The translations under genes and the position numbers were made by a program. A DNA stretch of 37,689 bases from Spirochaetia bacterium (GTDB lineage Bacteria > Spirochaetota > Spirochaetia > DSM-27196 > Salinispiraceae), in assembly GCA_038204425.1 (NCBI GenBank), contig JBBRCZ010000019.1, positions 1 to 37,689 of the forward strand, written 5' to 3'. This document shows positions 17,850 to 37,333 of this stretch, in pieces. The first letter of the stretch is position 1. Each line of letters starts with the position of its first letter. The notes beneath the pieces were generated by a model that did no database searches, was not told where the DNA came from, and saw nothing but the letters and a program-made list of their open reading frames with translations.

Positions 17850-17851
17850 GT

Positions 17852-20316: not shown

Positions 20317-20350
20317 ATTTAGCTCCTATAAATGAACTATAACTACCTGA

Positions 20351-20368: not shown

Positions 20369-20370
20369 TT

Positions 20371-21753
20371 TTAAACCAACAATGACAACTCGAAGCAGCT
20401 GCCTTTTCCCTCTTCGCTTTTGACCTTTAGCTTGCCGCCCAAAGTGTGACTTAGCGATTGGGCTATGGATAGCCCTAGCCCGGCACCGCCGGTGGAGCGG
20501 GTGCGGGAGACATCCGCTCTATAAAATCTTTCAAAAATGAAGGGTAGGTCTTTTTCTGCGATGCCGATGCCGTTATCAACGACCTGAAATACAATTTTTT
20601 GCTTTTTTTGAACAATTGAGACACTGACTCTGCCATTTTCTTGAGTGTATTTGAGAGCGTTGGAAACAAGATTGAATAGGATCTGTCGTACTTTGTCGTC
20701 ATCAGTCAGAAAACTAAAATCCTGGGTTTCTCCCTTGAGGGCAATTTTCTTGTCCATTGCATCGGCTTCAAAAGGTTTGAGCAGGCTTTTAAGAAACGAT
20801 AGCGAGTTCAATTTTGTAATGGTCGCTGGTTCAGTAGCGACATCAACCTTAGTTAGGTTTTCCAGTTGACCAACTATACGGGTAAGACGCAGCACTTCCT
20901 GTCTCAGGGTTTCCAGTTGATCTTTGTCGGTGGGAATGATGCCGTCGATTAACGCCTCAAGTTTTGCCTGAAGAATGCACAGCGGCGTTCTGAGCTCATG
21001 GGAAACGTCGACCGTTAGTCGTTTGCGTAGAGATTCTTGTTCCTGCAAGTTCTGTCCCAGCAACTGGATGGAGAGGGAAAGATCCTCAATTTCTGTAATA
21101 GCAGTATCTTTGACGATTGGCGCTGTCCAGTTGCCGAGTCGAATCTGATGAGCAGCTTCGGTTACTCTTAGTATTGGTCGGCTAATCCAACGAGCCATAA
21201 AGGCTCCCAGAAGAAGTGAGCCAACTAGAACCAAGAGGCCAAGGATCAATATCCATCCATTTAGTACTTTGAGAAACTCCAGTTCCGAATCATTGAAAAA
21301 ATATGGCCCATAGTGCCCAAAAGTTACCCGGCCCTCAAGGTTGGGCCCAAACTTGATCGGAAAAGTGTCCTGTTCATATGTTCCTTTCCAGCCCGGAGAA
21401 TAGCTTTCCATGACCATGGCCATATGGTTGAGCATGGCGGTGCAAAGTCCTGCATTGTGAGTTTCGGCATCCCAGACAAGCAAACCCTTTTCATCCACAA
21501 GCTTTACAACGTAACCCCTAGTAAGAGCCTCCAAGCCTATGGTGGTCAAAGCATCACTATTCCAGCCAGTTTCCTTGAGATAGGCTTTTGGCAGGGTGTC
21601 AGTGTAGACCTGCACTTCCCTGGCGATCCTAGTTTGAACCAGGATGCTAAACTGGTAGTTGACTAGAAAATTGGACGAGAACAATACAGCAAGGATGCCA
21701 AAAACAGCCACCAGAGCATAGGTCAGCATCAGCCTAGATCTTAGACTTTTCAT
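20371..21753 (-). CDS. Sensor histidine kinase (BaeS/CopS-like, HAMP-HisKA-HATPase)
   Basis: DVSHELRTPL, NLVSNALKYT, DNGIGI, FERFYR, GGAGLGL. Periplasmic HNAGLCTAMLNHMAMVM Met/His patch. Confidence 0.93.
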   Translation of the reverse strand: MKSLRSRLMLTYALVAVFGILAVLFSSNFLVNYQFSILVQTRIAREVQVYTDTLPKAYLKETGWNSDALTTIGLEALTRGYVVKLVDEKGLLVWDAETHNAGLCTAMLNHMAMVMESYSPGWKGTYEQDTFPIKFGPNLEGRVTFGHYGPYFFNDSELEFLKVLNGWILILGLLVLVGSLLLGAFMARWISRPILRVTEAAHQIRLGNWTAPIVKDTAITEIEDLSLSIQLLGQNLQEQESLRKRLTVDVSHELRTPLCILQAKLEALIDGIIPTDKDQLETLRQEVLRLTRIVGQLENLTKVDVATEPATITKLNSLSFLKSLLKPFEADAMDKKIALKGETQDFSFLTDDDKVRQILFNLVSNALKYTQENGRVSVSIVQKKQKIVFQVVDNGIGIAEKDLPFIFERFYRADVSRTRSTGGAGLGLSIAQSLSHTLGGKLKVKSEEGKGSCFELSLLV

Positions 21754-22460
21754 TAGCAGTGCTCCCGCCAGCGATAGCCGAAGCCAATCACCGTTTCAAT
21801 ATAAAACGGTTGAGCGGTATCTTCTTCCAATTTCATGCGCAGATTCTTGATATGCGCATCGACTGTTCGGTCAAACCCTTGAAAGTCCTCCCCTAAGGCG
21901 GACTCGGCCAATTGATTTCGCGAAAAAACCTGACCAGGATGGTCCATCAGATGACACAGCAAGCGGTATTCCGTGGGAGTTAGATTCACAACTAGGCTGT
22001 TTTTAAGGCATTCCCGCGTTCTCCTGCTTACTACAAGGCTGCCATCAAAGGAGGACAGCTGGTCTTGCTCTTTTGCTGGCGCAGTTCTGCTTCGCTTCCT
22101 AATGGCCTCGACACGCGCCAAGAGCTCTCGTGGACTAAAGGGTTTGGTGAGGTAATCATCAGCACCGAGCTGAAATCCATTGATCTTCTCTTCTTCGGTG
22201 ACCTTGGCGCTTAGCATCAAAATAGGGACTTGAGAGCGGCGCCGTATAATCTGGCAGACCTGTTCACCTGATCTGTCTGGGAGCATAAGATCCAGAATCA
22301 CAAAATCAGGGTTATGAGCCGTAAATAGTTCTAGCCCTGATTTTCCGTCTTGGGCCTCAAGGACTCGGAAGCCAGCATGTTTTAAGTAGGAGCTTACCAC
22401 TTCTCTAATTGACGGCTCATCATCAATTACTAGGACTGTCATTTTTGAACCTAAACTCAT
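21753..22460 (-). CDS. OmpR-family response regulator
   Basis: IDDE, LDLMLP, KPFSPREL, LTPTEY, RTVDAHIKNLR, ETVIGFGY. Confidence 0.95.
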   Translation of the reverse strand: MSLGSKMTVLVIDDEPSIREVVSSYLKHAGFRVLEAQDGKSGLELFTAHNPDFVILDLMLPDRSGEQVCQIIRRRSQVPILMLSAKVTEEEKINGFQLGADDYLTKPFSPRELLARVEAIRKRSRTAPAKEQDQLSSFDGSLVVSRRTRECLKNSLVVNLTPTEYRLLCHLMDHPGQVFSRNQLAESALGEDFQGFDRTVDAHIKNLRMKLEEDTAQPFYIETVIGFGYRWREHC

Positions 22461-22510
22461 TCATTTTTAAACGTAAATCCAACTCAGTCCCAAACCTGCG
22501 ATTGCAAGCA

Positions 22511-22717
22511 CTATTTTATTCCCGTCACCGTATAGCCAGCTTCGGCCACAGCGTTTCGGATCGCCTCATCCTCTAGCGAGGAGGCGCTAATCTCGGCCTG
22601 ATTTTTTTTAAGATCTACGCGCACATCCTCTACGCCGGACAGACCCTTTAAGGCCGTTTCCACATGGGCGACGCAGTTTTTGCATGACATGCCTTCAATC
22701 GAAACTATCTTTTTCAT
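22511..22717 (-). CDS. copZ: CopZ-like copper chaperone (HMA domain)
   Basis: GMSCKNCV motif, 68 aa, GGGAG RBS. Confidence 0.9.
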   Translation of the reverse strand: MKKIVSIEGMSCKNCVAHVETALKGLSGVEDVRVDLKKNQAEISASSLEDEAIRNAVAEAGYTVTGIK

Positions 22718-22858
22718 CTTGTACTCCCTATAGATATGAGCAGCTCGTGCGCAGGATAGCGCGCTTTGCGCACCAGTCATTGTCCTACGCTTGGTGATAT
22801 TTTGCAAGGCCATGAGTACATGCATCAAAGCGGACACAAAGTGACACCATTTAAGCGC

Positions 22859-23648
22859 TTACAACTGCTTGTTTAGTATTTCTGACTCAATAATTCTTAC
22901 GCATTCTGCAGGTTCTTCAAAGATAGGGCTATGTGCTGAGTGCAGAAATGAATAGAACATTTTTGTAGGGGCGCTTATTTTTTTATAGTATTCTTTTGCT
23001 AATTCATAAGAACAAGTGTAGTCGAATATCCCATGAAAAAAATACATCGGAACTTCAAACGAAACACTCTCCTTGCCTCTCCACAGATTAATTTTATCGT
23101 TAAAACTATATTCACTAAAAAACAATGACGGAATAAATAGTCCTGTTATGACATTGTTCATAGTTCTCATCGTGCCTACACCCAAATCATGCATTGCTGC
23201 ATCTCTATGTTTGATATAGGTTTCCGGCAGTGGAGTGTTTAATTCTACTGGGCTAGTTAGTAGCTCTTGATAGGTTTTGTAATTTTTTGGCATGCCCTTG
23301 TACTGTTGCAGGATATATTCATAAGCTTTTTTTTCCGACAAGTTTTGGTACGATATTTGGGCTACGCCAATATACGCTTGGTACAGCTGAGGGTGCTTCT
23401 CAATAACTTTAATCCCAAGATAGGTTCCACCAGAGTGAGCCATAAGATAGCCCCGCACCACGTTGCTCAAGCCAGACTACGGTGAATATTTCGTCCAAAC
23501 CAGTAGGATACTGTTCAGGAAGAAAATAATCCGGCATTCCACCGTGTAGATAAAGAAGAACTGGATTTGATTTATTTTGACCTTTAATGAAAAAGCCCAG
23601 GATTGCCAAAAGCAAGCCCGCAATGAGCGTAATCAAATGCAAATTCAT
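22859..23648 (-). pseudogene. Alpha/beta hydrolase (prolyl aminopeptidase-like), frameshifted and deleted
   Basis: YLHGGMP...EQRGAGLSY is joined out of frame to YLMAHSGG(T). GIFDYT and SAHSP carry the catalytic Asp/His. Confidence 0.8.
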
Positions 23649-23739
23649 TGGTAAGTCCTAAACTTTAGTCTCAGTGATATTTGTTTATAGTATAGCTTAA
23701 AAGGGCAGGGGTGGCTGATCCACCCCAAAAATTTTTATA

Positions 23740-25956
23740 CTATGATTTCTTGCGAAACAGTTTTACCAAAGGATGAGCTAAGATAGATTCAATAAAGGCC
23801 TTTCTGGCTGCTTGCTTGTGAATTTCTGAATAGGTAGGATAGGCATGGATGATGTTTTGTAAGACACGGAAAGGTTTGCCCAAGGCTTTGACAACTTGAG
23901 TTTCGTGGATCAATTCACCAGCACGAGGGCCTAAGATATGCGCGCCGATAATCCGGCCTCTTTTGTTCAGTATCCATTTTGCAAGCCCCGTTTCAACCGC
24001 ATCGCATTTGGCTCTATCTAAAGCTGTTAGATCCTGCCGCACCACCTGAATTCTCTTTCCGTATTTTTTTATCGCTTCTTCTTCGGTCAATCCGATTCGG
24101 GCCAGTTCTGGGTCGGAGAATACAGCCCATAGCATATGGGTATAGTCAGCTCTTACAGGCCACGGAAATAGGTAGTCCAGTGAAGCAGTTACACCTTGGA
24201 GCCCCGCATTGTGGCTTAAGGGAAAGATTCCTGTGCAGTCTCCAGCTGCAGAGATAGAGGAGACCGTTGTTCTCATGTTTTTTTTCACTAATATGCCCAT
24301 TGGTCCTGTTTTTACTCCAACTTCTTCCAATCCAAAGCCTTTGGTGACCGCCCGACGGCCGAGCCCCAGCAAGAGAACTTCCGAGACCACACTTTGCGTT
24401 TTGCCGCCTAGCTCAAACGAACAGCCGATCGCTCCCGGGCCACCAGAAACAGCAGTCACCTTAGCAGAAGTCAGAAGAACGATGCCTTCTTTGACCAGTC
24501 GGTCATGCAGTAGTTGGGTGATCTCTTGATCTTCTCGAGGTAAAATGCGGGCTGCCATTTCCAAAACCGTCACTTGCGTGCCCAAACGCTGGAAAGATTG
24601 GGCCAATTCTATGCCAATCGGTCCCGCGCCAAGAATGGTCATAGTTTTGGGCCAAGAACTAAGGTTAAAAATGGTCTGGTTGGTGAGATAGGGAACCTGG
24701 TCCAAACCAGGAATTGGTGGAATAAAGTTTTCCGAGCCCGTGGCGAGGACAATTCTGGACGCAGTATAGACTTTGCCCGCTACCGTAACCTGATGAGGAC
24801 CAGTAAGCGTGGCTGTGCCCTTGAGAACCTCAGCACCCCAGCGAGCCACTGCATCTGGATCCTCTTCGGCATACACTTTTTCTTGCACAGATCGGATGTA
24901 TTCCAAGACTTTGAGGGAGTCCCATCCTGCTGGAATAGAAGCTGTGTCTGGAGATTTGATGCCTTGGAATCGAGATAGGCTGCGAGCCTCCCAGACTGCA
25001 TGGGCGCTACGAATCAGGGCTTTTGAGGGTATGCAGCCAGACCAGGTACATTCTCCACCCAACCGATCTTGTTCCACCAAGAGAGCTTTTTTTCCAAATC
25101 CAGCGGCAGTTCGTATTGCAGAAATGCCGGCAGAACCGCCACCGATTACAATCAGGTCAAAATCATATTTCATTAGAATCTCCTTTTTTTGCGAATTAAC
25201 GAATGGTGTCCTTAAGATACCCCAGGGACTATGCCAGGAGCTTTGCCTATACAAAGGAAGCCCCAGTTTGATCTGAGAAGGATCATCAAGGGTTTTGAAG
25301 GAACCAAAAATTCGGTCCCACCAAGAGAAAACGGAAGAATAGTTGGATTTAAATTCTGCGATTTTTACACTGTGATGAATTTTATGCATAATTGGGGTAA
25401 CTAAGAACCAGTTAACAATACGGTCAAGGCGAGGTCCCAAAGTGAAGTTGCCATGGTTAAAAATTGAGGCCGATACCAAGATACCGTCGTACCAGAGAAT
25501 GGTCAGGGGTGGAACTCCCAGCAAAAGAAAAAGCGGAATACGCAGAATGGATGAAAAAGCGATCTCAGCAGGGTGGAACCGTAAGGCCGTGACTGCGTCC
25601 ATTTCCGTATCTGTATGGTGAACTTTGTGAAACTTCCATAGGAACGGTATAATGTGGTTTAACCTATGCCACCAGTATGTCCAACAGTCCAGCAGCAGGA
25701 TTCCCAAGCCAAAGCTTATGAACCAAGGCAGCGCGACAAAGGACAACAAGCCAAAACCCCAGGTGCCTGATCCTTGCAGTACCCAGCTAGTCAAGCCAGA
25801 AAAAAAGAGCATTCCCATGCCGCCGTTAATCAGAGCGATAAAAAGATTGCTCACCCTCTTTCGCCAATGACTACTTGGATATTTAAAAAAAGGCGCCAGA
25901 AATTCCCACAACAAAAAAAATGCTAAACTGCAGACGATCACCACAAGCTTTTCCAT
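23740..25956 (-). CDS. Sterol desaturase/fatty-acid hydroxylase domain fused in frame to an LpdA/MerA-like pyridine nucleotide-disulfide oxidoreductase (internal start at 25173)
   Basis: His boxes HRLNH, HKVHH, FNH and HKIHH. Then AAGGAG RBS + MKYDFDLIVIGGGSAG, GGECTWSGCIPSK, GAGPIG and HAYPT. Confidence 0.88.
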   Translation of the reverse strand: MEKLVVIVCSLAFFLLWEFLAPFFKYPSSHWRKRVSNLFIALINGGMGMLFFSGLTSWVLQGSGTWGFGLLSFVALPWFISFGLGILLLDCWTYWWHRLNHIIPFLWKFHKVHHTDTEMDAVTALRFHPAEIAFSSILRIPLFLLLGVPPLTILWYDGILVSASIFNHGNFTLGPRLDRIVNWFLVTPIMHKIHHSVKIAEFKSNYSSVFSWWDRIFGSFKTLDDPSQIKLGLPLYRQSSWHSPWGILRTPFVNSQKKEILMKYDFDLIVIGGGSAGISAIRTAAGFGKKALLVEQDRLGGECTWSGCIPSKALIRSAHAVWEARSLSRFQGIKSPDTASIPAGWDSLKVLEYIRSVQEKVYAEEDPDAVARWGAEVLKGTATLTGPHQVTVAGKVYTASRIVLATGSENFIPPIPGLDQVPYLTNQTIFNLSSWPKTMTILGAGPIGIELAQSFQRLGTQVTVLEMAARILPREDQEITQLLHDRLVKEGIVLLTSAKVTAVSGGPGAIGCSFELGGKTQSVVSEVLLLGLGRRAVTKGFGLEEVGVKTGPMGILVKKNMRTTVSSISAAGDCTGIFPLSHNAGLQGVTASLDYLFPWPVRADYTHMLWAVFSDPELARIGLTEEEAIKKYGKRIQVVRQDLTALDRAKCDAVETGLAKWILNKRGRIIGAHILGPRAGELIHETQVVKALGKPFRVLQNIIHAYPTYSEIHKQAARKAFIESILAHPLVKLFRKKS

Positions 25957-25972
25957 TATTCGCGCTCCTCGT

Positions 25973-26758
25973 TTAAGTCAGAGACCGTCTTCTTTGCCAC
26001 TTGTTCAAAACTAAGTCCAAACCAGCAAAGACTATCAAAGGAAACAAAAGAAATACCAAAGCGAGTACCGAGGCCCAGGATCTTTGCGAACTGGCCAATG
26101 CGGGTACTATCACGGTCGCAAAAGATGGAACAACCCCACCTCCAAAGAGAGATACAAGAAAATAGTCCGAGAAAGCAGCCAAAAATACTATTGACGACCC
26201 GGAAAAAATGGCCGGCCATAACAATGGCAGTTCTATTTGTAAAAACACCCGTACAGGACCGGCGCCTAAGTTACGAGCTGCGGCTCCAAGCTCTGGACCT
26301 AGAAGTCGGTAGCCCCAGGTGAGGGATCGCAAGAGATAGGGATAACTATAAAAACAGAGCATGACTACAATAAGTCCAGGAGTGTCAGTGAGGCTGAGGC
26401 GGCTGAGCCAGTAGTGATTGCCCAAAGCCGTAGTTACGGCAGGTATTACCGCCGGTGTTAACAAGAGAAGCTCCCAGAGATCCCTTGCGGGTATCCGGTC
26501 CCTTGCCAAGGAAGCAGCCGCCGGTAAGGTCAAAACCAAAGATAGAAGTACCGCTCCAAGCGAGTAAAGAAAACTACTTAAAAGTGGTATCAAGAGATTG
26601 TTGCGGCTGACTAGTCGTCCCCAGTAGTCCATGGTCAGAACACTGGGTAGCAGGTCGGGGTAGGACCAGGACCCTGCTAAGGATTGAAGCCCCAATAGCC
26701 CCACGGGAACGACAAAAACTATTGCCAAAAAGCCAAAGAGCAATGTTTTTTTAATCAT
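25973..26758 (-). CDS. ABC transporter permease (YnjC-like C-half)
   Basis: WSYPDLLP, EAA-like AARNLGAGP..VF..IELPLL, FSDYF...GGG. Confidence 0.85.
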   Translation of the reverse strand: MIKKTLLFGFLAIVFVVPVGLLGLQSLAGSWSYPDLLPSVLTMDYWGRLVSRNNLLIPLLSSFLYSLGAVLLSLVLTLPAAASLARDRIPARDLWELLLLTPAVIPAVTTALGNHYWLSRLSLTDTPGLIVVMLCFYSYPYLLRSLTWGYRLLGPELGAAARNLGAGPVRVFLQIELPLLWPAIFSGSSIVFLAAFSDYFLVSLFGGGVVPSFATVIVPALASSQRSWASVLALVFLLFPLIVFAGLDLVLNKWQRRRSLT

Positions 26759-27588
26759 GTATCTTCCTGGTTTTGGGCTTTCTTACTTGCTCTAAAATAA
26801 GCATATAAGAAAACCAGACTGAAGACAAAGATAACTATCAGAAAAGCTAGTGCTTTAGCGCGCTGAGAGGGATCCTGTTTAAAAAGGGATCCATAGAGCT
26901 GAATGCTAACCATGGGTGGATAAGATTCCCCCACTAAAAATGGCACTTCATAGGCTCCCAAGCTATAGAGAAATATGATGATAAAACCGGTTTGGAGACT
27001 CCCAAAACACTGTGGCCAAAAGACCTGCCTAAATATTTGCCAACGCCCGGCGCCTAAATTTCTGGCAGCCAGTACCAGTTGGGAATCCATCTGCCCCAAG
27101 GAAGCCAAGACCAGAACCATGATAAAGGGTGTCTCTTTGAGAAGGTAAGTCAGAATAATACCCCAACCCCAACCGCTATAAAGGACCGGGCCTAAAATTT
27201 GAGGGTCGTCCAACAAGCCGAGTGAATGCAGTCCGCTAGCCAAAAATCCTGAAGGAGTCCATATCAAGAGAGTCAAAAACGCTACCGTTAAATGAGGTAG
27301 AATCAGGGGGATGCGGTAGACCTGTGCAAAGACTCGTTGCGCCCCTTTGAGATTGTAAATGGCCAGTGATAGGAGTAATCCCGCGATGGTTGCCCCTAGC
27401 GAACTCACCGTTGCCACCCACAAGGAAAAAGCAAAAGAGCTCAGAAACCGCGGATCCGCAGCCAGCTCCCCCCAACCTTCCAAAGAACCGACCAAGGAAG
27501 GTAAGATCCCTGCCAGCGTCAGAACCCCGGCAAAAACCAAGAGAGGCAGCAAAGCTACGGGGAATCGGTGAGAACGTGGCGCTCCCAT
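26755..27588 (-). CDS. ABC transporter permease (YnjC-like N-half)
   Basis: PHLTVA, KETPF, AARNLGAGRWQIF, YEVPFLVG. Confidence 0.85.
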   Translation of the reverse strand: MGAPRSHRFPVALLPLLVFAGVLTLAGILPSLVGSLEGWGELAADPRFLSSFAFSLWVATVSSLGATIAGLLLSLAIYNLKGAQRVFAQVYRIPLILPHLTVAFLTLLIWTPSGFLASGLHSLGLLDDPQILGPVLYSGWGWGIILTYLLKETPFIMVLVLASLGQMDSQLVLAARNLGAGRWQIFRQVFWPQCFGSLQTGFIIIFLYSLGAYEVPFLVGESYPPMVSIQLYGSLFKQDPSQRAKALAFLIVIFVFSLVFLYAYFRASKKAQNQEDT

Positions 27589-28790
27589 TTATTCTCCAAA
27601 GCTTCTACATAGCTCGAGCTGATTTCTGGCACCATATTTGCTGCCAAGACCTGAAGAGGAAGCGTAGCTGGGCCTAAGTCTAAGCTTTCAAAGCTTGCCT
27701 TATCTTGACCCTTAAGCTTGCTTGTATCCAAAACCGTAAAATCTCCCCAGTTAAGAGGATCGTTCTTGGACGCTTGGATGGCTGGATCTAAAAGCAGGTT
27801 GGCCAAAATCAATGCTCCAGCCGGGTTGGGCGAATTAAAAGGAACGGCAGTATAGTGAATGTTTCCCAGTGACTGACGTTCCATCACCAAGGTTCTAACC
27901 GTAGCAGGATAACGTCCAGCGTGGATCAAACCCTGTGCACCGCCTTGGCTGTATGACATGTTAAAATCAACTTCGCCTCGTTCAAAGAGCGTGTCTAACT
28001 TAGCCTTATCAGAAGGATAGGTAGTTCCTTTTTGCCAAAGGTAGGGCCTTACGTCCTTAAGCCAAGCCCAGAGCGGGGCGGAATCCACCGCAAACTCATC
28101 TTGGTCAAAGGGTTTTATGTAGTTCGCTTGCCCGCCAGAGCTCGCGTAAAATACCTGACGAATAAAGGCCGAACCGGTGAAATCGCTAGCTTCAGGATAG
28201 GTAAATCGTCCAGGGTGCGCGATAATCCAAGCCTTGAGCTCGACAAAATTCCGAGGAGGACTTGGGATCTTTGCTGAGTCGTATTCAAAAACAAATTGGG
28301 CCCGCCCGTAGGGCACCTCATAGCCCTCCACAAGGGTTCCAAAGTCATAGACTACGTCTTGCGGATTGACCAAAGCCATATTGGGTAACTTGTCAGAAAT
28401 GGGGCCCAGAAGCAGCCCCTCGCTTTTGGCCCTGCGAAAATTTTCGCCATTGATCCACAGCAGATCTAGGGAACCTTGTTCTTTGTTTGCAGATTTCTCA
28501 TTGGAAACTTTGCTGACAAATACCGATGCGTCCATCGGGATTCTAAGCAAGTCGACGCCATAGTCTTTCTTGAGGCGAGTCGCGACCACCGTGTCTACCC
28601 AGGTGTTGATCCGGTCATCACCGCCCCACATCGCCCAGGTGACCGTTGTACCTTTGGCCTTGGCCTCTATCTCGGCCCAACTAAGATTTCTGACATCGGA
28701 CTTGTCGATTGAGGCCTTACAAGCACCCGAAGCCCCCAGAATCAAAACCATAACTGCCAAAAGAATGCTTTGGCCCTTATTTATTTTCAT
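27555..28790 (-). CDS. ynjB: ABC substrate-binding lipoprotein, YnjB family
   Basis: Lipobox-like GASGAC, MWGGD, DLLWINGENF, PYGRAQFVF, GRFTYP..DFTGSAF. Confidence 0.85.
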   Translation of the reverse strand: MKINKGQSILLAVMVLILGASGACKASIDKSDVRNLSWAEIEAKAKGTTVTWAMWGGDDRINTWVDTVVATRLKKDYGVDLLRIPMDASVFVSKVSNEKSANKEQGSLDLLWINGENFRRAKSEGLLLGPISDKLPNMALVNPQDVVYDFGTLVEGYEVPYGRAQFVFEYDSAKIPSPPRNFVELKAWIIAHPGRFTYPEASDFTGSAFIRQVFYASSGGQANYIKPFDQDEFAVDSAPLWAWLKDVRPYLWQKGTTYPSDKAKLDTLFERGEVDFNMSYSQGGAQGLIHAGRYPATVRTLVMERQSLGNIHYTAVPFNSPNPAGALILANLLLDPAIQASKNDPLNWGDFTVLDTSKLKGQDKASFESLDLGPATLPLQVLAANMVPEISSSYVEALENKWERHVLTDSP

Positions 28791-29733
28791 AGATACTTCT
28801 CCTTAGATATAAATGACCGCGATCTCCCTCTCGGTGATCTTGATTTAGACTGGATACTGTCCAGATTTTATGTTCTTTTTCTACGAGCAAAATAATTCGA
28901 GTGCCGTAGAAACGAAGTTCACGAACTATGGCCTCGCCCTTTGGATCGCAGACAAACCGCAGTCCTTCAGCTCTAACCCAAGGGGATGACGAAATCTGCT
29001 GTGCGCCACCAAGGGCAATACTCTCGTCAGCTTGCACAAGATTTACAGGTCCAAGAAACTCGGCTGCCTCAAGTGATGACGGGTTGGTAAAAATCCCCCG
29101 AGGAGTGTCAAGTTGAACCAAGCTGCCCTCTAAAAGAATCCCAATTCGCTGCGACATGAGAAAAGCCTCGTCAAAGTCGTGGGTCACGCAAACCACGGTC
29201 GTTCCCAATTCCCTTGTCAGGTTTCGAATGAACTCAGCCGTGCCAGCCTTTAGGTTAGGATCCAAGTTGGCAAAGGGCTCATCCAATAGAAGCAACAGAG
29301 GGTTTAGAACCAAGGCTCTAGCCAAGGCCACGCGTTGTTTTTCCCCACCCGAAAGCCGAGCAGGATAAGCTTTGCCAAGAGCTTCTATGCCCAGCCGTCC
29401 CAAGAGCGGGTTGACCCTTTTTTTAATTTCTTGCCCCTTTAGTCTACGGGCCCTTAAACCAAAAGCTACATTGTCAAAAACTGTCAAATGAGGAAACAAG
29501 CGAAAGTCCTGAAACACCAAAATTACCGGATTTTCTCGTGTATGTGCTTGAGCATATTCCAAAGTTCCTTCGTCGGGTGTTTCAAGTTGGGCCAGTATTT
29601 TGAGCAGGGTCGATTTTCCTGCCCCACTTGGGCCAACAAAAGATAAAAACTCCCCTTTTTTTACTTCAAAACTCACATTCTTTAGGGCAGAAAAACCCTT
29701 AAAAACCTTAGTGACATTTTTTAGCTTGACCAT
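28777..29733 (-). CDS. ABC transporter ATP-binding protein (YnjD/PotA-like)
   Basis: GPSGAGKST, LFPHLTV, LSGGEKQR, LLDEPF, VTHD. Confidence 0.92.
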   Translation of the reverse strand: MVKLKNVTKVFKGFSALKNVSFEVKKGEFLSFVGPSGAGKSTLLKILAQLETPDEGTLEYAQAHTRENPVILVFQDFRLFPHLTVFDNVAFGLRARRLKGQEIKKRVNPLLGRLGIEALGKAYPARLSGGEKQRVALARALVLNPLLLLLDEPFANLDPNLKAGTAEFIRNLTRELGTTVVCVTHDFDEAFLMSQRIGILLEGSLVQLDTPRGIFTNPSSLEAAEFLGPVNLVQADESIALGGAQQISSSPWVRAEGLRFVCDPKGEAIVRELRFYGTRIILLVEKEHKIWTVSSLNQDHREGDRGHLYLRRSIYENK

Positions 29734-29735
29734 AT

Positions 29736-30362
29736 TTAGACGACCGAACTTTTTTTTGTAAGCAGCCGAAAAGCCCAAGAAAATCGCAAGACAATACCCA
29801 AAATGGTTAAAGCAGCTGTTGCCCAGAGAAGAAAGTACCTTGCTTCTGGTATGAGGATCAAAAGTGAATAGATGATGATCGTTTCAGCCCCTTCCACAAG
29901 ACCGGAAGGCATAACGACGGAAGTTTTTGTCTGATCTTCGCTGCTTCGCCCTCGCTTTTCCAGAATAGCCGAGAGGTACATCCAGGACGCACCATTGATG
30001 TAGAAGCTGGCCATCATCACTAGAGTCGGAAAAAGTAGCTCTTGGTTTTGGTCAAGTACCACCAGCGCCAAGGGGATGGCGGCGTAGACTACAAAGTCTA
30101 GCATGATATCAAGATAGCCGCCAAAGTCGGTAACTTGATTGGACATTCTGGCCAGAAGCCCATCTATGCCATCAACAATTCGGTTGACTAGCCAGAATCC
30201 AAATGCCAGACCAATCTGACCCAAGCCCAAAAAAACCACGCTTGCCATACCAAGTACAAAGGCCACAATGCTAACCATATTAGGATGGATTTTGTCCACC
30301 ATAGGACGGATAAGCCCGGCAAGTATCCTATCCTTGAGATTCCGAAGCGGAAGATCAAACAC
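29736..30362 (-). CDS. ynjF: CDP-alcohol phosphatidyltransferase family protein (YnjF-like)
   Basis: DGIDGLLAR...TDFGGYLD motif and GLVEGAET. Confidence 0.85.
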   Translation of the reverse strand: MFDLPLRNLKDRILAGLIRPMVDKIHPNMVSIVAFVLGMASVVFLGLGQIGLAFGFWLVNRIVDGIDGLLARMSNQVTDFGGYLDIMLDFVVYAAIPLALVVLDQNQELLFPTLVMMASFYINGASWMYLSAILEKRGRSSEDQTKTSVVMPSGLVEGAETIIIYSLLILIPEARYFLLWATAALTILGIVLRFSWAFRLLTKKSSVV

Positions 30363-30401
30363 GAGAAAGCTCCTGATTTAAGGGTTCGCACCACACCTGT
30401 T

Positions 30402-30671
30402 CTAGCCCCCAACCTTAAATAATTTGGTCCTAGTTAAAAGGGCAGAAAAAGTACCCTTGGGTAAGAAGTTTGTGGCTGTGATTAGTTCCCCTTTTAGGTA
30501 ATAGCGAATGTAGGGTATTTCAAAATTTCCAAAACTTTCTTCTTTAAACTGACAAACTTTTTCTGAGTGATTTCTAATTTTGCCCGAAAAATCAATGGTT
30601 TCCAAAAGACAATTGATCTGATCATCATCAATTTTAAAAAAATCTTTTACCGACGATTCGTTAGTACTCAT
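30402..30671 (-). CDS. Hypothetical protein (89 aa) inside the operon
   Basis: ATG preceded by AAGGA. Co-oriented between the decarboxylase and ynjF. Confidence 0.55.
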   Translation of the reverse strand: MSTNESSVKDFFKIDDDQINCLLETIDFSGKIRNHSEKVCQFKEESFGNFEIPYIRYYLKGELITATNFLPKGTFSALLTRTKLFKVGG

Positions 30672-30741
30672 TTTTGTCCTTTGAGGCAATTGCCTCGTGC
30701 GCATTAGATGCTATCAGCTGCCAAAATCTTACCGAAAAGCC

Positions 30742-32109
30742 TTAAGCGCTTTTGATTTCTTTAAGGATGCGCAGTAGATCCTTCTTCTTCAAAGCTGGGT
30801 TGACGCAGACGAGACGAATTATGCGTTGTCCTCTAAACTCGCCATAGCCGATCTTTAATTGGCCACTACGATTTAATGCCTCGCAGATTTCTTCGCTAGA
30901 CCGACCAATGACTTCAAAACAAACATTGATTGATACAGGTCTCTCGCTAAGTTTTAGAAGTGGATCGGCCTCGATCAGGTCGGCGGCCGTCTGCGCAAGG
31001 TCCATTTGTAGATTTAGTCGCTCGTCCCAGCCTTGGTCCCCCAGTTGGGACCAGACAGCCCAGAGTCTAAATGCGTCATTGCGGCGTCCGCACTGCAGAG
31101 ACCGATGACCAGGATTAAAGTCCTCGCCATGTTCTTGGAAAAGGTAGTCAGCGGTTTCGTCAAGACTGCGGGCCAAATGTCCTTTTTGAGCAGTCAAAAT
31201 AACCGAAGTCTGCAGCGACAGTCCCATCATTTTATGCGGGTTCCAAGCCAGGGAATCGGCCAAGTCTAGTCCGGACAGAAGCTGCCGGTGTTTTTTAGCT
31301 AGCAAGAGGGAAGCTCCTAGAGCTCCATCCACATGAAACCAAAGTCCATACTTTTTAGCCAATTTGCCAATCTTGTCCAAAGGATCAAAAGACCCTCGTA
31401 CTGTGGTTCCGGCCGTACCATTAATAAAAAATGGAACATAACCTTGGTCTCTATCTTGGCAGATGGTTTGTTCCAGAACTTTGATATCCATGACGCCGTC
31501 CCTAGTTACGGCAATTTTTCTCACCCGGTCTCGTCCCAGTCCCAAGATTCCAGCATTTTTCTGAATAGAGTAATGAGACAGCTCGGAAGTGTAGACTACT
31601 GCCACCACATCGCCCATGCCCTTGTCCCGCGCCAAGGGAAAGTGTTGGTTTCTGGCCAAAAGAAGCGCAGCCAGATTTGCAGCGGACCCGCCGGGGACAA
31701 AGGCGCCTTCTCCTTGGGCAAAACCAGCCGCCACGGTCAGTTTCTTTAGGACTTCCGCTTCCACCAATATTTGAGCCCCAGCGGCTTTAAAAGTATACAA
31801 AGAAGAATTGGCAAAAAGTGACAGGATCTCCGCAGAAAGACCTAGAGGCTCCAGCCCACCAAAGAGTTGATTTAAGAAACGCCAGTTTAAGGAAGAAGGA
31901 CTTGCCGCCATGATTTTTTCCATTCTGCGGAACAAGTCTTTAGGGTCAGTATTACCTTGATCCAAACTCAGGTCTAGGGTCTTTCTGAGTTCTTCTGGGC
32001 TAAGAGTAGAAAACGGTTTGCCCGCCTCAGCATGCTTAACATAGCTCTTAACCAGAGTCCAAGTTTTATCCCAGATATACTTAATAGTTAGATCTTTACT
32101 CATGTCCAT
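30742..32109 (-). CDS. Group II PLP-dependent decarboxylase, cysteine sulfinic acid decarboxylase (CSAD) type
   Basis: HYSIQK, TAGTTV.G.FD, WFHVDG, NPHK(PLP), SLQCGRR. Selectivity motif NQL-F-x19-S-L-Y. Confidence 0.85.
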   Translation of the reverse strand: MDMSKDLTIKYIWDKTWTLVKSYVKHAEAGKPFSTLSPEELRKTLDLSLDQGNTDPKDLFRRMEKIMAASPSSLNWRFLNQLFGGLEPLGLSAEILSLFANSSLYTFKAAGAQILVEAEVLKKLTVAAGFAQGEGAFVPGGSAANLAALLLARNQHFPLARDKGMGDVVAVVYTSELSHYSIQKNAGILGLGRDRVRKIAVTRDGVMDIKVLEQTICQDRDQGYVPFFINGTAGTTVRGSFDPLDKIGKLAKKYGLWFHVDGALGASLLLAKKHRQLLSGLDLADSLAWNPHKMMGLSLQTSVILTAQKGHLARSLDETADYLFQEHGEDFNPGHRSLQCGRRNDAFRLWAVWSQLGDQGWDERLNLQMDLAQTAADLIEADPLLKLSERPVSINVCFEVIGRSSEEICEALNRSGQLKIGYGEFRGQRIIRLVCVNPALKKKDLLRILKEIKSA

Positions 32110-32759
32110 GCCCCGGTCCTTTGGTAATAGGGAGTAATACAGGAAAAATAGTCTGCCTTTGTATACGGATCGGTAAGAATCCCTTTTTTGGTGGCTTTTA
32201 CAAATTCTGAAGAAAGGTTGAGAAAAGCCGGTCCTTTGGTGGTGGTAATTTGGTCTTTTTCTATTTCAAAAATCTGAGAATCCTCCGTGGAGGGACCTTG
32301 GTGGCCCAGAGCTCCATAGATGTGCAAGGTCATAAAGGGACTATGCCCTAAGTTGCCCATGGCATGGTAAAAATCCCCGGTGCAGGACGGTAGGATAGAT
32401 CCAGGCGCTACGGTCTGTTTTTCTGACAAAGTTATTGCCTGGCCTTTTACTTGGTAAACCCGATGAGTAGCTTCTCCAAAAAAGTAGACCAGTCCACATT
32501 CAGTGTGTCCATGCCCATGGATAGCCGTAAAGTCTCCTGGGTTCCAGGACATGGCATACATGCCCCAGTGCTCACTAGACCAAAGAGCTTGTCTTCCGTA
32601 ACTCAAATGAGCGGGATGATCAAACTGGCTAAAGGGCTCTAAATCTTGCTGACTCAGACCAGCCGCTTCTACCAGATCACGGAGTTTTTCACTAGTGACT
32701 ACCAATCCATCAGCGCAAGCTTTAATAATTTTTTTGAGAGATTGGGATAGTTCCATCAT
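32100..32759 (-). CDS. Cysteine dioxygenase (Arg-type cupin thiol dioxygenase)
   Basis: YGR (Tyr-x-Arg), W.PG..T.IHGH, HAMGN (third His), TLHIY. Overlaps the decarboxylase start. Confidence 0.85.
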   Translation of the reverse strand: MMELSQSLKKIIKACADGLVVTSEKLRDLVEAAGLSQQDLEPFSQFDHPAHLSYGRQALWSSEHWGMYAMSWNPGDFTAIHGHGHTECGLVYFFGEATHRVYQVKGQAITLSEKQTVAPGSILPSCTGDFYHAMGNLGHSPFMTLHIYGALGHQGPSTEDSQIFEIEKDQITTTKGPAFLNLSSEFVKATKKGILTDPYTKADYFSCITPYYQRTGAWT

Positions 32760-32768
32760 CTTTTGCTC

Positions 32769-33626
32769 CTAAAGTCCGTTAAGGGACCAATCGTATTCGT
32801 AAGAAACTGATGCACGAGGGTCCTTGATTTGTTTTGCTAACTGCGGCTGGGCGTACTTCAAAAGGAAGTCCTTGATCTCATTTAGATTAGTGCCAAAGTC
32901 TTGAGAGAACCAAGAAAAAATGCTAGAAAGAACCAAGTTTCCGGCCTGAGAACGAACACCCTTAACTGAGTTGATAAACTCGCGCGCTCCCTTGTCCAGT
33001 AATTCTACCGTGTTCTCCGCCGTAAACGCCTGAGGTTGAAGATTTGGACACCCAAGGCTAGCACAGTTTACCGCAAAATGAACTCGGGCGTCTTTCCATA
33101 TCGGTCTGAGAATCCGGTGTTCAATATCGTTGAGACTCACTTTTTGACCCTCAATGCTCAGAAGCTTTTCATCCCACGGCCCAGAAGAAAACAGGCCCCC
33201 CAGTTTGATATCTCTGATGGACTTAACTTGCGGGTACTGAAGAATCAAGGCCACTGTCTGAGCGTTGTAAAGATTGATCCAATACGCTCTTTGCTGGTTT
33301 CGATTTAAGGTGGTAACTGGAATTTTTTGCAACCGTTCCAAATAGCTCGACAGAATTGCCTTGTCTGCTTTGCTCACCTGAGAATATTTTACCAGATTGA
33401 CCGAGCCGGGTGAGGCTATCACAAGATACTTGCCCAAAAAATCATTCCAAGCCCCATGGTCGACAGACGCTTGAGAAGCGGCATTATTGGCGCTCCAAAA
33501 GCCCCAAAGTTCCGATGAGGGTGCTGCCCAGCTAGTGGAAACCGCTAAAAAAAATATCGTAAAAAAGAATACGACAGAAACTCCAAGCCTTCTCATACGC
33601 TTGGTCAAAAAAACTGTTGGGTTCAT
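32769..33626 (-). CDS. DUF547 domain exported protein
   Basis: AYWINLYNA, SLNDIEH.ILR, DARVHFAVNCASLGCP, LSSIF.WF..DF, YDWSLN. Confidence 0.92.
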   Translation of the reverse strand: MNPTVFLTKRMRRLGVSVVFFFTIFFLAVSTSWAAPSSELWGFWSANNAASQASVDHGAWNDFLGKYLVIASPGSVNLVKYSQVSKADKAILSSYLERLQKIPVTTLNRNQQRAYWINLYNAQTVALILQYPQVKSIRDIKLGGLFSSGPWDEKLLSIEGQKVSLNDIEHRILRPIWKDARVHFAVNCASLGCPNLQPQAFTAENTVELLDKGAREFINSVKGVRSQAGNLVLSSIFSWFSQDFGTNLNEIKDFLLKYAQPQLAKQIKDPRASVSYEYDWSLNGL

Positions 33627-34330
33627 TCTTGCTCCTTTGTTGCTTGCGACACTCGTGACTTTTTAAACTTTTTTATGATTAGGGGAATCAATGAAAATAC
33701 TATTAAAACTGCGAAGGCCCCCAGAACTTGTGGCGAGAGGATGCCGGCCAGACTAGTAATGGTTGCTAGCTGACTGCCTGCCAAGGCGTATACAAATGAT
33801 CCGGCCACTATGCCAAGTGAGGTGGTCCACAAGAATGTCAACGGCTTGACCGTTGTTAGCCCCGCAAGAATGTTGATAAGAAAAAAAGGAAAAATAGGCA
33901 GAAGCCGCAGAATCAACAAATAAGAGGCACCATCTTTTTCAAAGGCAGCATTAAAAGTGGCTATTTTTTCTTTGTATTTTTCTTGTAGTGACTTGCCTAG
34001 CAATGCTTTGGTGATGAAATAAATCACCATGGCTCCAGCAGTTGCGCTAATATTGACCAAAAGAGTCCCCAAAAAAGGGCCAAATAGAAAGCCCGCTGTG
34101 AGTGTAAACAAGACTGCGCCAGGAACCGAGAGAGAAATAGCAGCAAAGTTGGCCAGCGTAAAAACTAAGGCCGCTGGAACTGGATTGGCCTTTACCAAGT
34201 CCAGCAGCTGGTCCTTGGATTTTTGAAGTTGTTCAAAGCTCAAGTAAGTATCCAAACCAGAAAGCTTCAACAGCAACCAACCACTGAATATAACCGCAGC
34301 CAAGACTAAGAGCTTTAAGATCGTCTTCAT
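33623..34330 (-). CDS. TVP38/TMEM64 (DedA/VTT, YdjX-like) membrane protein
   Basis: SVPGA..TL.AGFLFG, LRLLPIFPFFLIN..GLT. Confidence 0.92.
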   Translation of the reverse strand: MKTILKLLVLAAVIFSGWLLLKLSGLDTYLSFEQLQKSKDQLLDLVKANPVPAALVFTLANFAAISLSVPGAVLFTLTAGFLFGPFLGTLLVNISATAGAMVIYFITKALLGKSLQEKYKEKIATFNAAFEKDGASYLLILRLLPIFPFFLINILAGLTTVKPLTFLWTTSLGIVAGSFVYALAGSQLATITSLAGILSPQVLGAFAVLIVFSLIPLIIKKFKKSRVSQATKEQE

Positions 34331-34585
34331 AGAATCTCCCTTTATGATGCCTAAACATTATATAGAGATCTTGAGGAAGAGAAATCTTACGTGCAAACTA
34401 TTTGTCTGATTTTTTTTGACATTTTACTAAGAGCAGCAAGTTTTTGTGGGGAGAATCCCTTGGTGCTTGGCTGGTCAGGTCAGGTCAACTTGGAAAAATA
34501 TTAGATCTTCATTGTTATATCAACGATTGATACTGCTGTCAGAGGCATGGTTTGGGCTTGACTCGAGGGCGGCACCAACCCGAGT

Positions 34586-35446
34586 ATGATTACAACTTTT
34601 AAAGAAGGTGTTAGATTAAACGTAGTGGAAAAGCATGTTTCGGTTGATCGGCTTATTAGAATTAAAAACCCATCTCTGAGCGGTTTAGCATTTTTTTTGA
34701 CCAGTGCAGTTCTAAAAATTGTTCTAAAGGAGCGACTGATCAATAGTGTTATTGAGCAAGTTGGTGATGTTTCGCCTTTTGAATTTGCACGAAAGGTGCT
34801 AAAGATACTTAATATCACCCTTGTCTTTGTTGGGCTAGAAAAATTGCAAAACATAGGAAAAGTGACCATTTGTGCCAATCATCCAACCGGTGCCGTGGAT
34901 GGGTTGGCCCTTTTGCTCTTGTTAGAAAAACTGTCAGGAAGGCCTCAGATATTGGTCAATGACATTTTGTTTGACCTGCCTATATTGAGCGAGTATTTTT
35001 GGCCATTAAACAAATTTGCAAGCAACATAAAGGCGATGACTAGGCTGGACAACTTGTACGCTGCTCAAGATGCAATTGCGTTGTTTCCAGCTGGTAGGAC
35101 GGCTAGGCCGTCAATAGGCTTTTTGAGAGAACTTGCCTGGGAAAAAAGCTTTGTGAAACTTAGTAGAAAGCACAATCGAAGTTTTTTTCCCGTCAAAATA
35201 AGCGGGGCCAATTCTAAGTTTTTCTATGGCCTATGGCGCTGGCGGAATAGACTTGGCATAAAAGCCAATCTGGAGATGTTTTTCTTGGTCCGAGAATTTT
35301 TTAAAAAGAAAAATCAAACCATTACCATTACTGTTGGAGATGCTATCGAACCTGGGCAATGCAGCGGCAAAAACAGTTTTGACTTGGCTCAAGATTTGCG
35401 TATTCTTACGGAACACTTAAGTCCCTTGGAGCCATGCTGTGATTGA
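34586..35446 (+). CDS. PlsC-family O-acyltransferase (OlsF N-domain/GlsA-like)
   Basis: ANHPTGAVDG (HX4D), LVNDIL, LFPAG, W.KSFV, NSKFFY. Confidence 0.85.
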   Translation: MITTFKEGVRLNVVEKHVSVDRLIRIKNPSLSGLAFFLTSAVLKIVLKERLINSVIEQVGDVSPFEFARKVLKILNITLVFVGLEKLQNIGKVTICANHPTGAVDGLALLLLLEKLSGRPQILVNDILFDLPILSEYFWPLNKFASNIKAMTRLDNLYAAQDAIALFPAGRTARPSIGFLRELAWEKSFVKLSRKHNRSFFPVKISGANSKFFYGLWRWRNRLGIKANLEMFFLVREFFKKKNQTITITVGDAIEPGQCSGKNSFDLAQDLRILTEHLSPLEPCCD

Positions 35447-36389
35447 TATAATAGCGCCTGTTGCTAGAAAGCTTTTAATACGAGAGCTAAGCGCGGACAA
35501 ACAAATTTTGAGCTTCAAAAATCTGCAAATTTTTGCTTTTTCTGGCCAAGAAGCGCCACAAACTCTTCAAGAAATAGGAAGAATTCGCGAGACCGAGTTT
35601 AGAAAAGTTGGAGCAGGGCGCAATCTTGAGGTTGATTTGGATCAACTTGACCGTGGCCCATTTAGTTACAAACACTTGGTAAGTTGGGATCCAGTTAACG
35701 AGGAAATTGTAGCAGCGTATCGGTTTATGATTTGCTCTCAATTGCAAGGCGCTGATAGTCCTGGCTGGCAACGACTGAGAACCGCCAGTCTTTTTGACTT
35801 CTCGCAGCGCTTGGAACAAGAAATTTTGCCGCTTGCGATTGAACTTGGTAGATCGGTCGTTAATTCACTTGCAAAGAGTGCCATTGTTGGATTGTTCTCT
35901 GTTTGGGCAGGGCTTGGAGCGCTTCTAAATGAGTATCACCAAGTTCAATATTTTTTTGGTACTTTTACCGTGTATGACACCTATCCAGATAGTGCGAAAT
36001 CGTTGATAGTCAATTTTTTGGAGCACTATCATCACCATAACTTAGCTGAAGGTAAAAGTAGTAGCTTGCTTGCTGCCAAACTTGGATTGCACTACTCGTC
36101 GTTGCAATTAAACTTGCTGACTGGGACTAACTATGATGCTGATTTTACGCGCCTCTTAGAGCAATTTAAAATTTGGCATTTATACGTACCGCCAATTTTG
36201 CTTTCCTATTTAGGAGCTTGTCGCCAGATGAGCTATTTGGGCGCTGCCGTTGATAGTGACTTTGCTGGAGCTTTAGAATGCGCTATATTGGTGCCAAGCA
36301 AGTACTTGTCCGATAAGACAAAGCAACGATTTGTTGATACTTATACCAGCGCCAACCCCGACAGATTTAGACGCTTGCTTTCAGAATAA
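35439..36389 (+). CDS. GNAT-fold N-acyltransferase (Acetyltransf_5; OlsB/OlsF C-domain/GlsB-like)
   Basis: EIGRIRE.EFR.VGAG..EVDLD, IVAAYR, IELGRS, YFFG, VPP..SY, DSDF. GTG start overlaps the upstream stop. Confidence 0.85.
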   Translation: MIDIIAPVARKLLIRELSADKQILSFKNLQIFAFSGQEAPQTLQEIGRIRETEFRKVGAGRNLEVDLDQLDRGPFSYKHLVSWDPVNEEIVAAYRFMICSQLQGADSPGWQRLRTASLFDFSQRLEQEILPLAIELGRSVVNSLAKSAIVGLFSVWAGLGALLNEYHQVQYFFGTFTVYDTYPDSAKSLIVNFLEHYHHHNLAEGKSSSLLAAKLGLHYSSLQLNLLTGTNYDADFTRLLEQFKIWHLYVPPILLSYLGACRQMSYLGAAVDSDFAGALECAILVPSKYLSDKTKQRFVDTYTSANPDRFRRLLSE

Positions 36390-36693
36390 GGTCCGGGTCT
36401 TCTGACAGGGTTCTCAGTAAAGCTTCCAGCTCCTCAAGGCAGTCTGGGCAACTTTGAATGTGCCTATGAACTTTGGGAAGAATTTGGGCCACATCCTCAC
36501 CTCTAAGCAGCATTTCCGCGTATTGATTCATGAGTTCAAAGGTAGCATCACAATCAATATCATCCTCTTGGGTATCCATTATCATGGAAATCATCATTTG
36601 AGGGCTGGCTTGTCCCGCTATCTTGTGGGTTCTTGAGAATTTGTGCTGCCCTACCAATTGATCAAATAGTTGTTTAATTGTTTTAACTATCAT
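36367..36693 (-). CDS. zf-HC2 (ZAS) anti-sigma factor-like small protein
   Basis: C-x23-HIQSCPDC.EE.EAL, downstream of the ECF sigma factor. Confidence 0.8.
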   Translation of the reverse strand: MIVKTIKQLFDQLVGQHKFSRTHKIAGQASPQMMISMIMDTQEDDIDCDATFELMNQYAEMLLRGEDVAQILPKVHRHIQSCPDCLEELEALLRTLSEDPDLILKASV

Positions 36694-36709
36694 TTCTTTT
36701 TCACTTCCC

Positions 36710-37333
36710 TCACCCTGACTCCGTGAGATCATGCACCGTCAATCCTTGCCTGTCTATTCTCTGTTTTAGCTTAATCCTAGCGTCGTGCAGCAACTTGTAT
36801 AGAGCATTTCTGTTGGTATCTAGTCGTCTTGCGGCTTCTTCTAAGGGTAGGCCTTTGAATGCAACTAAGCCTAGTGCTGTCAGTTGTTTAGGACTGAGAA
36901 CCTCGATCATAATTTTTTTGATCCATGCCATACTCATCTCGTTGTTGACTTTGGTCTCGGGGGCCGGATAGCGAGATTCCCACGCCTCGGGTTTGTCTTC
37001 TTCCATCAGACTGTCCAAGGATACATCCAACCATCTCTTTCGTCGCAGTTCAGTTAGCGCTACACGAATGCATATTTTGTAAGCCCAAGTGATAAACCTA
37101 GACAAGTTGTTAAAGGTGGACAAGTTTTTGAGAATTATCATCAGTGCTTCCTGAGCAAAATCCTCGGCCTGTTGGTCAAATTCTCGGCCCCAGGTGCGCA
37201 CCCAGCCTTTTAACGCCGGCCTTAGGCCGCGAATCAGCAAGACTCTTAAATCGGCGAGGGCGTGATCCTGATTCTTAGTTTGAGATCCAAGCACTTCCAA
37301 CCATTGTTCATTTGATCTCATGTGCAACCTCAT
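36710..37333 (-). CDS. ECF-type RNA polymerase sigma factor
   Basis: AEDFAQEAL, F.TWAYKI.IR.A..ELRR (region 2). LSPKQ...EAARRLDTNRNALYKLLHDAR.KL (region 4). Confidence 0.92.
   Translation of the reverse strand: MRLHMRSNEQWLEVLGSQTKNQDHALADLRVLLIRGLRPALKGWVRTWGREFDQQAEDFAQEALMIILKNLSTFNNLSRFITWAYKICIRVALTELRRKRWLDVSLDSLMEEDKPEAWESRYPAPETKVNNEMSMAWIKKIMIEVLSPKQLTALGLVAFKGLPLEEAARRLDTNRNALYKLLHDARIKLKQRIDRQGLTVHDLTESG

Follow-up and report, generated by a model that had tools for sequence, protein, structure and literature searches.

An acyltransferase pair linked to taurine synthesis and uptake genes in spirochaetes as a candidate route to an acyloxyacyl taurine lipid

We analyzed a 37,689-nucleotide stretch of DNA from a Spirochaetia bacterium of the family Salinispiraceae (contig JBBRCZ010000019.1), the whole of which is called the window here; it is contig C19 of a genome (G000) of 2.84 Mb and 95.6% completeness. 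The window carries a pair of aminolipid-type acyltransferase genes of a subfamily that recurs in other genomes beside genes for taurine synthesis or for a TauABC-like importer. That the GlsB-type enzyme of the pair N-acylates taurine or hypotaurine, and that the GlsA-type enzyme then adds an O-linked chain to yield an acyloxyacyl taurine lipid, is in our judgment the likelier outcome; the reading rests on genome context, i.e. genes, motifs, synteny and tree grouping, from which we infer the catalytic steps and the lipid. The two genes lie on the plus strand (34586-35446 and 35439-36389) and overlap by 8 bp, as an earlier note on this DNA had described. The first encodes a GlsA/OlsF-N-type O-acyltransferase of 286 amino acids (PF19576, E 2.7e-32), proposed to carry out the second acylation, and the second encodes a GlsB/OlsF-C-type GNAT N-acyltransferase of 316 amino acids (PF13444, E 5.5e-9), the proposed (hypo)taurine N-acyltransferase. 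A PF13444 GNAT encoded together with a PF19576 or PF01553 protein is the gene arrangement of a two-step acyloxyacyl aminolipid synthase, and the window has it. The earlier label of the first enzyme as PlsC-type corresponds to a PF01553 match of E 1.3e-6 only, and PF19576 fits it better. On the minus strand, from 34330 downward, we found a DedA/VTT membrane protein (33623-34330; PF09335), a DUF547 protein (32769-33626; PF04784), a cysteine dioxygenase (CDO)-like cupin of 219 amino acids (32100-32759) and a cysteine sulfinate decarboxylase (CSAD)-like group II pyridoxal phosphate (PLP) decarboxylase of 455 amino acids (30742-32109), with junctions of -4, +9 and -10 bp. All the genes that had been named before were thus located where they had been placed, and the divergent gap of 255 bp (34331-34585) was confirmed; it is bordered by the DedA and O-acyltransferase genes, and CDO and CSAD come third and fourth in the minus-strand run. 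A promoter scan of this gap gave one site with 1.0 expected, i.e. no promoter-like site above chance.

In the proposed pathway, CDO would convert cysteine and O2 to cysteine sulfinate and CSAD would convert cysteine sulfinate to hypotaurine, as predicted from their families and motifs, and the hypotaurine would then be turned into taurine or be used directly. By analogy with GlsB/OlsF chemistry, the GNAT would transfer a 3-hydroxyacyl chain, probably from acyl-acyl carrier protein, onto the amine, and by GlsA/OlsF chemistry the PF19576 enzyme would esterify a second chain on the 3-hydroxyl of the amide-linked chain. The product would be an anionic, phosphorus-free acyloxyacyl sulfonate lipid. 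Relatives of the host would feed the same acyltransferases with taurine imported by the TauABC-like system, and G000 would represent the rarer, self-supplying version.

The best families of the pair were GlsA and GlsB, with the OlsF domains second. The GlsB-type protein scored 209 bits against NF053696 (cut-off 300), the GlsA-type protein scored 191 bits against NF053697 (cut-off 260), and as two separate genes the pair reached 141 and 167 bits against NF052615, the OlsF model with a cut-off of 620. Since these scores lie under the GlsB, GlsA and OlsF cut-offs, we take the pair to work like this class without filing it as a member. When 283 GlsB/OlsF domains were placed in a tree by FastTree, the window GlsB fell inside a clade of 136 sequences with a support of 0.999. 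R61 and R114 occurred in 99% of this clade as against less than 20% of the 147 sequences outside it, where T or S at position 61 and Y, A or P at position 114 dominate; position 175 was mostly N within the clade as against K or P outside. No solved-structure relative of the window GlsB was found by sequence. The GlsB homologues that carried taxon names were mostly from Spirochaetota, and a profile search of G000 gave four FlaA matches over the cut-off. A variant was noted in G011 (L063:8569-12074) and G034 (L064), both of one family, where GlsA carries a TANGO2-like domain fused to its N-terminus and its gene lies beside coaBC; genomes of this type carry an R61/R114 GlsB and neither TauA nor CSAD.

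We fetched 108 CSAD loci, 28 from GTDB and 80 metagenome loci kept from 406, and in eight of them CSAD or CDO adjoined a GlsA/B-, OlsF- or OlsB-type gene (5 of the 28 GTDB loci and 3 of the 80 metagenome loci). Three of the GTDB loci were from spirochaetes and read GlsB-CSAD at a contig start (L035), GlsA-GlsB-CSAD (L036) and YnjF-DUF547-DedA-GlsA-GlsB-CSAD-oxidoreductase (L040). A metagenome-assembled genome of Kiritimatiellia had CDO-GlsA-GlsB, then a two-gene insert resembling a toxin-antitoxin pair, and then CSAD (L042), and a member of the Steroidobacteraceae had CSAD with a fused OlsF-like and an OlsC-like gene (L057). The metagenome loci comprised CDO-GlsA-GlsB-CSAD-DedA (L084), CSAD with OlsB-type and PlsC-type genes (L100), and an OlsB-type and an ATP-grasp-like gene 2.3 kb from CDO-CSAD on the opposite strand (L112). 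In addition, consecutive accessions of Spirochaeta dissipatitropha (GAB6091420.1 and GAB6091421.1) were a CSAD and a GNAT, and three further CSAD/GlsB pairs and two CDO/GlsB pairs were ascribed on indirect grounds to shared genomes. In a tree of 28 rows, the six CSAD-linked GlsB rows grouped as a single branch (98/94) and were separate from the GlsBs of the host's own family, indicating that the cassette travels as a unit; five CSAD-linked rows also grouped at 81 in a quick tree of GlsA. The CSADs linked to the GlsB branch likewise grouped (0.876), and those of L057, L100 and L112 fell elsewhere. As these are separate CSAD lineages, the link to acyltransferases arose more than once. A distant CSAD group of 36-40% identity with a divergent CDO (L118, L121, L124, L139, L146, L147, L149, L152, L160 and L162) had no acyltransferase in the fetched DNA.

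No CSAD orthologue was found in 40 relatives or in 98 other genomes of the host's order, and among 400 genomes of the class there was again no orthologue, only two matches at 30-33% that lacked the CSAD signature described below. The absence from the 40 relatives, together with the finding that 10 of the 22 relatives with a GlsB have it close to DUF547, was the basis of an early reading of ours in which only GlsAB and DUF547 were linked and CSAD was a chance insertion. That reading was overturned by the synteny of the CSAD loci and by the TauA linkage. Conservation of synteny had been named beforehand as a check, and both in other spirochaetes and in the Kiritimatiellia genome CSAD or CDO proved to share an operon with GlsA-GlsB; the reservation that the adjacency could be chance did not hold up, as other genomes too place this acyltransferase subfamily with genes for taurine supply.

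In relatives without CSAD, a TauABC-like ATP-binding cassette (ABC) system adjoined the same GlsAB, the recurring layout being GlsA-GlsB-DMT facing TauCAB. The best family of the binding protein was TauA (TIGR01729) with 213-218 bits, below the cut-off of 304, and that of the permease was TauC; among solved structures the binding protein matched E. coli TauA (6ssy) best, with E 7e-40. Residues Q30, G61, G79, E106, T132 and D205, which are described in the available part of PMC6906117 as binding taurine, D205 being absent from SsuA, were kept in all four aligned TauA-like proteins. Of the order's 98 other genomes, 54 had GlsB, 39 a TauA-like protein and 34 both. TauA and GlsB shared a contig in 20 cases: in 19 they were no more than 10 kb apart (no more than 3 kb in 18 of these), and in one they were 1.6 Mb apart; in the other 14 genomes the two genes were on different contigs of fragmented assemblies. 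A search of G000 gave no TauA-like match, so this genome has CDO-CSAD without the importer. The importer link does not depend on the CSAD link: a synthesis cassette and an unrelated uptake system take one and the same position next to this subfamily, which is the strongest evidence for a taurine substrate. The DMT (EamA/NIPA-like) membrane protein of the recurring layout, which had no Pfam match, was tightly linked to the R61/R114 GlsB in many relatives (e.g. L062:11676-12485) and also adjoined the CDO remnant in G416 (L165:177-1058), and it was not found in G000; it is a candidate transporter of taurine or of the lipid.

The enzymes of taurine supply were then considered by residue. The cupin matched B. 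subtilis CDO (4qm8) with E 3.1e-8 and had H81, H83 and H132, presumably the metal ligands, R56, which we take to be the active-site Arg, and T144-H146-Y148, the presumed Thr-His-Tyr triad; these were kept in 55-58 of 58 homologues. It thus carries the residues of an Arg-type CDO (a three-His site, an Arg and Ser/Thr-His-Tyr). The Pfam model CDO_I (PF05995) gave no match to the window cupin; it was present in 36 of the 58 homologues, and it also missed a full-length CDO homologue in G420. The CSAD-like protein is a group II PLP decarboxylase (PF00282, E 1.4e-68) with the PLP lysine at K293, and its structure matches were GADL1 (E 4e-85, the top match), CSAD (4e-83) and GAD (1e-76). It has F83-x19-S103-x-Y105, in accordance with F/W-x19-S-x-Y, which the available part of bioRxiv 10.64898/2026.08.27.747329 gives as a signature of mammalian and Synechococcus CSAD; F-x19-S-x-Y was present in 113 of the 120 listed CSAD homologues. 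The other group II decarboxylases of the relatives were rejected as stand-ins for CSAD, the signature being missing. Because of this family evidence for CSAD and CDO, a predicted route from cysteine through cysteine sulfinate to hypotaurine in G000 is well supported. No candidate for the step from hypotaurine to taurine was found in G000, and the best cysteate synthase match in this genome was 18.6 bits against a cut-off of 325. CSAD is not needed for pantothenate, since G000 carries a separate PanD. Taurine catabolism in G000 was considered and rejected: no TauD was found there and no Xsc scored over its cut-off.

These data also bear on whether the same two-step chemistry might use another small amine, namely homotaurine, cysteamine, a related aminosulfonate, or beta-alanine derived from aspartate. 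Aspartate and glutamate are slow substrates of human CSAD (PMC8153620), GADL1 rather than CSAD headed the structure matches, the relatives' binding proteins stayed under the TauA cut-off, and two genomes, G416 and G418, retained CSAD after CDO was lost. On the other hand, the signature is nearly constant among the homologues, the window, L042 and L084 all have an intact upstream CDO, the relatives' importer keeps the full TauA binding set, and PanD already supplies beta-alanine. We therefore rate a different amine as a minor prospect.

Several observations weigh against a dedicated taurine lipid, and three of them also favor the possibility that the pair makes an ordinary glycine, ornithine or lysine lipid, with taurine used as an osmolyte or antioxidant and the genes clustered by shared stress regulation. 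An acyltransferase of these types was not seen in 100 of the 108 CSAD loci, including 61 of the 65 with at least 8 kb of fetched DNA, suggesting that the bulk of bacterial CSADs serve other roles. In other orders, 14 genomes had a TauA-like importer and no GlsB, and seven tested GlsB loci with neither taurine supply still carried R61/R114. The ordinary lipid is also what GlsB, GlsA and OlsF, the best family matches, would suggest; even so, we find it improbable, as the scores lie below the cut-offs of all three, two unrelated supply systems substitute for each other beside one subfamily, and GlsAB sits between CDO and CSAD in L042 and L084. Further points against the taurine lipid are that 20 of the 54 GlsB genomes of the order had neither a TauA-like protein nor CSAD (at least four of them, G003, G004, G006 and G012, have the other GlsB type, and some of the assemblies are incomplete), that the R61/R114 GlsB of G342 lies 1.6 Mb from its own TauA, and that the OlsF of L057 is without R61/R114. 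The TauABC/GlsB link may have a single ancestral origin because the genomes are kin, for which reason a Fisher test on them is given no weight here. In two genomes with the link, G416 and G418, CDO is only a C-terminal remnant, it had no match in G419, and G418 has both CSAD and TauA. Finally, no bd or haem-copper oxidase was found in G000, which makes the O2 supply for CDO uncertain; since a related spirochaete is described in the available part of PMC4511686 as an aerotolerant fermenter without a terminal oxidase, an O2-dependent CDO is possible and not assured.

A third alternative is that GlsAB build a normal amino-acid lipid and that a separate ATP-dependent ligase then joins taurine to its carboxyl, as in cerilipin. 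Ornithine lipid modified with taurine has been described, and the ATP-dependent enzyme that attaches the taurine has been missing since the 1970s, according to PMC12971839. A family of ATP-grasp-like proteins is a candidate for such a ligase of two-residue head groups (the serine of flavolipin, the taurine of cerilipin): it was found between GlsA and GlsB in G012 (L175:5818-8624), beside a second GlsB in G009 (G009:C57:11199-13153), beside the OlsB-type gene near CDO-CSAD in L112 (L112:1237-3061), and after CSAD in bacteria that use table 25, and the CSAD-OlsF-OlsC-like arrangement of L057 looks more like the cerilipin route. However, the family was not found in G000 (best profile match 21 bits), and it occurred in 7 of the 41 genomes (7 of the 40 relatives), where it tracked the other, non-R61 GlsB type. 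As the sole candidate ligase family is not found in the host and follows a different GlsB, we hold a cerilipin-type route in the window to be of low probability, no better than that of another amine. In the table 25 bacteria (TGA read as a residue), we noted a conserved run of a CSAD-like decarboxylase, a membrane protein of 177-178 amino acids and an ATP-grasp-like protein (L051:9962-12889, L054:3788-6712, L123:7989-10920, L129:7983-10972 and L158:7983-10907; also L052, L060, L122, L127 and L161). This run suggests that taurine is ligated to some acceptor; two of the loci are labelled Absconditicoccaceae and Peribacteria, and a run of this kind is unexpected in such reduced genomes.

Past CSAD, a gap of 379 bp precedes a further minus-strand run, so that a single transcript for both is only a possibility; no terminator-like site was found in this gap, the terminator scan giving nothing above chance. 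A doubtful open reading frame of 100 amino acids (30402-30704) belongs to no family and had only a 55-amino-acid partial match elsewhere in G000. The run consists of a CDP-alcohol phosphotransferase (29736-30362; PF01066), which we take to be YnjF-like, an ABC importer that is not TauABC (25973-29778), presumably YnjBCD-like, with an ATPase, a PRK11622 binding protein and two permeases (NF008633, 491 bits, cut-off 203), and a fusion protein of 738 amino acids (23740-25956) in which a fatty-acid-hydroxylase-family diiron domain (about residues 1-258; PF04116) precedes a pyridine nucleotide-disulfide oxidoreductase (PF07992/PF02852). The two parts of the fusion are separate genes in the relatives examined. 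The hydroxylase domain has its His boxes but scored 75.7 bits against OlsE (NF052566, cut-off 475), and the fusion protein fell below all 25 listed NCBIfam cut-offs, so an OlsE identity was rejected. In both L040 and L057 a homologue of the hydroxylase is oriented divergently to the cassette, and DedA is co-operonic with GlsA-GlsB-CSAD in L040 and L084. DUF547 was present in 27 and the PRK11622 importer in 28 of the 41 genomes; in many relatives GlsAB lies in a DUF547 neighborhood, whether or not CSAD is there, and the DUF547/Ynj block is likewise present in G003, G004 and G006, where the single GlsB belongs to the other type and maps elsewhere. The hydroxylase, DedA, YnjF and YnjBCD belong to a broader neighborhood; they may have a role in this lipid, but such a role is unsupported. 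Of the pathway proposed in the earlier note, taurine supply and N- then O-acylation were borne out as a gene association by the recurrent synteny and by the TauABC-like alternative. Hydroxylation and flipping as parts of the pathway found no support: the hydroxylase domain scores far below OlsE, and the DUF547/Ynj block is present with an unlinked GlsB of the other type as well. Elsewhere in G000, an OlsC/LpxO-like gene of the Asp/Asn beta-hydroxylase family (G000:C12:25875-26636), 32% identical to the L057 protein, encodes a product that could 2-hydroxylate the lipid. Around the locus, an extracytoplasmic function (ECF) sigma factor and a small putative anti-sigma gene (36367-37333) overlap the end of GlsB, and a homologous pair flanks the cassette in L040; an apparently degraded alpha/beta-hydrolase gene (22859-23739) lies directly downstream of the operon, and 14514-22837 holds an ordinary Cus-type heavy-metal RND efflux system with a two-component regulator and an HMA chaperone.

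We see an even chance for a wider proposal: that the R61/R114 enzymes are N-acyltransferases dedicated to taurine, the first in bacteria that attach an acyl chain directly to an aminosulfonate, that they define a new phosphorus-free class of acyloxyacyl taurine sulfonolipids common in one free-living spirochaete order and fed by TauABC or by a mobile CDO-CSAD cassette, and that bacterial taurine biosynthesis repeatedly serves to make lipids, an outcome arrived at independently with OlsF, with OlsB/PlsC and with ATP-grasp, a candidate cerilipin ligase. The tie to acyltransferases offers a use for bacterial taurine; if true, the proposal would give its synthesis a purpose, make the passage of taurine into membranes a sink in the sulfur cycle and provide a marker gene for a lipid biomarker. 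Spirochaeta dissipatitropha offers a cultured strain in which a CSAD gene and a GNAT gene are adjacent. The known acyloxyacyl head groups are few: ornithine, lysine, glycine, serine-glycine, glutamine and cysteinolate, besides cerilipin, and GlsB homologues are noted in Spirochaetales, for which no glycine lipid has been described (PMC12971839, PMC11631085). In the literature searched, with few subscription papers and no supplements, neither an acyloxyacyl lipid carrying taurine directly nor a link of GlsB to CSAD or to TauABC came up.

Among known systems, the CDO-CSAD operon of Synechococcus sp. PCC 7335 (Agnello et al. 2013, as described in papers that cite it) likewise has CDO directly upstream of a signature-bearing CSAD; here, in contrast, the two are tied to aminolipid acyltransferases in a spirochaete host in which terminal oxidases were not found. 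The sulfur-containing aminolipid (SAL) of Roseobacter, made with SalA, is a phosphorus-free amide-plus-ester lipid with an aminosulfonate head, as is proposed here from the genes; it differs in its C3 cysteinolic acid head, in an OlsA/PlsC-type SalA and in a first step that the available parts of PMC11631085 and PMC8319176 give as not OlsB-type. The enzyme that acylates the aminosulfonate of SAL is not yet identified in the available part of PMC11631085, and the present locus names two genes and a testable substrate for such a reaction. Cerilipin, the tauro-ornithine lipid of Gluconobacter cerinus, also has taurine in a bacterial acyloxyacyl lipid, as proposed here, but its taurine is added in an ATP-dependent manner to a hydroxylated ornithine lipid (available part of PMC12971839), and no matching ligase candidate was found in G000. 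The ABC system of the relatives shares with E. coli TauABC all six taurine residues listed above; a system of this kind is not in the window and was not found in G000, and in the relatives it sits with the acyltransferases. Like the glycine lipid enzymes GlsB/GlsA of Bacteroides and the bifunctional OlsF (available parts of PMC12971839 and PMC11631085), the window pair combines a PF13444 N-acyltransferase and a PF19576 O-acyltransferase as adjacent genes. Unlike them, it scores under the curated cut-offs, falls in its own clade with R61, R114 and mostly N175, and belongs to a subfamily linked to taurine synthesis or uptake, with a proposed head group that has no carboxyl.

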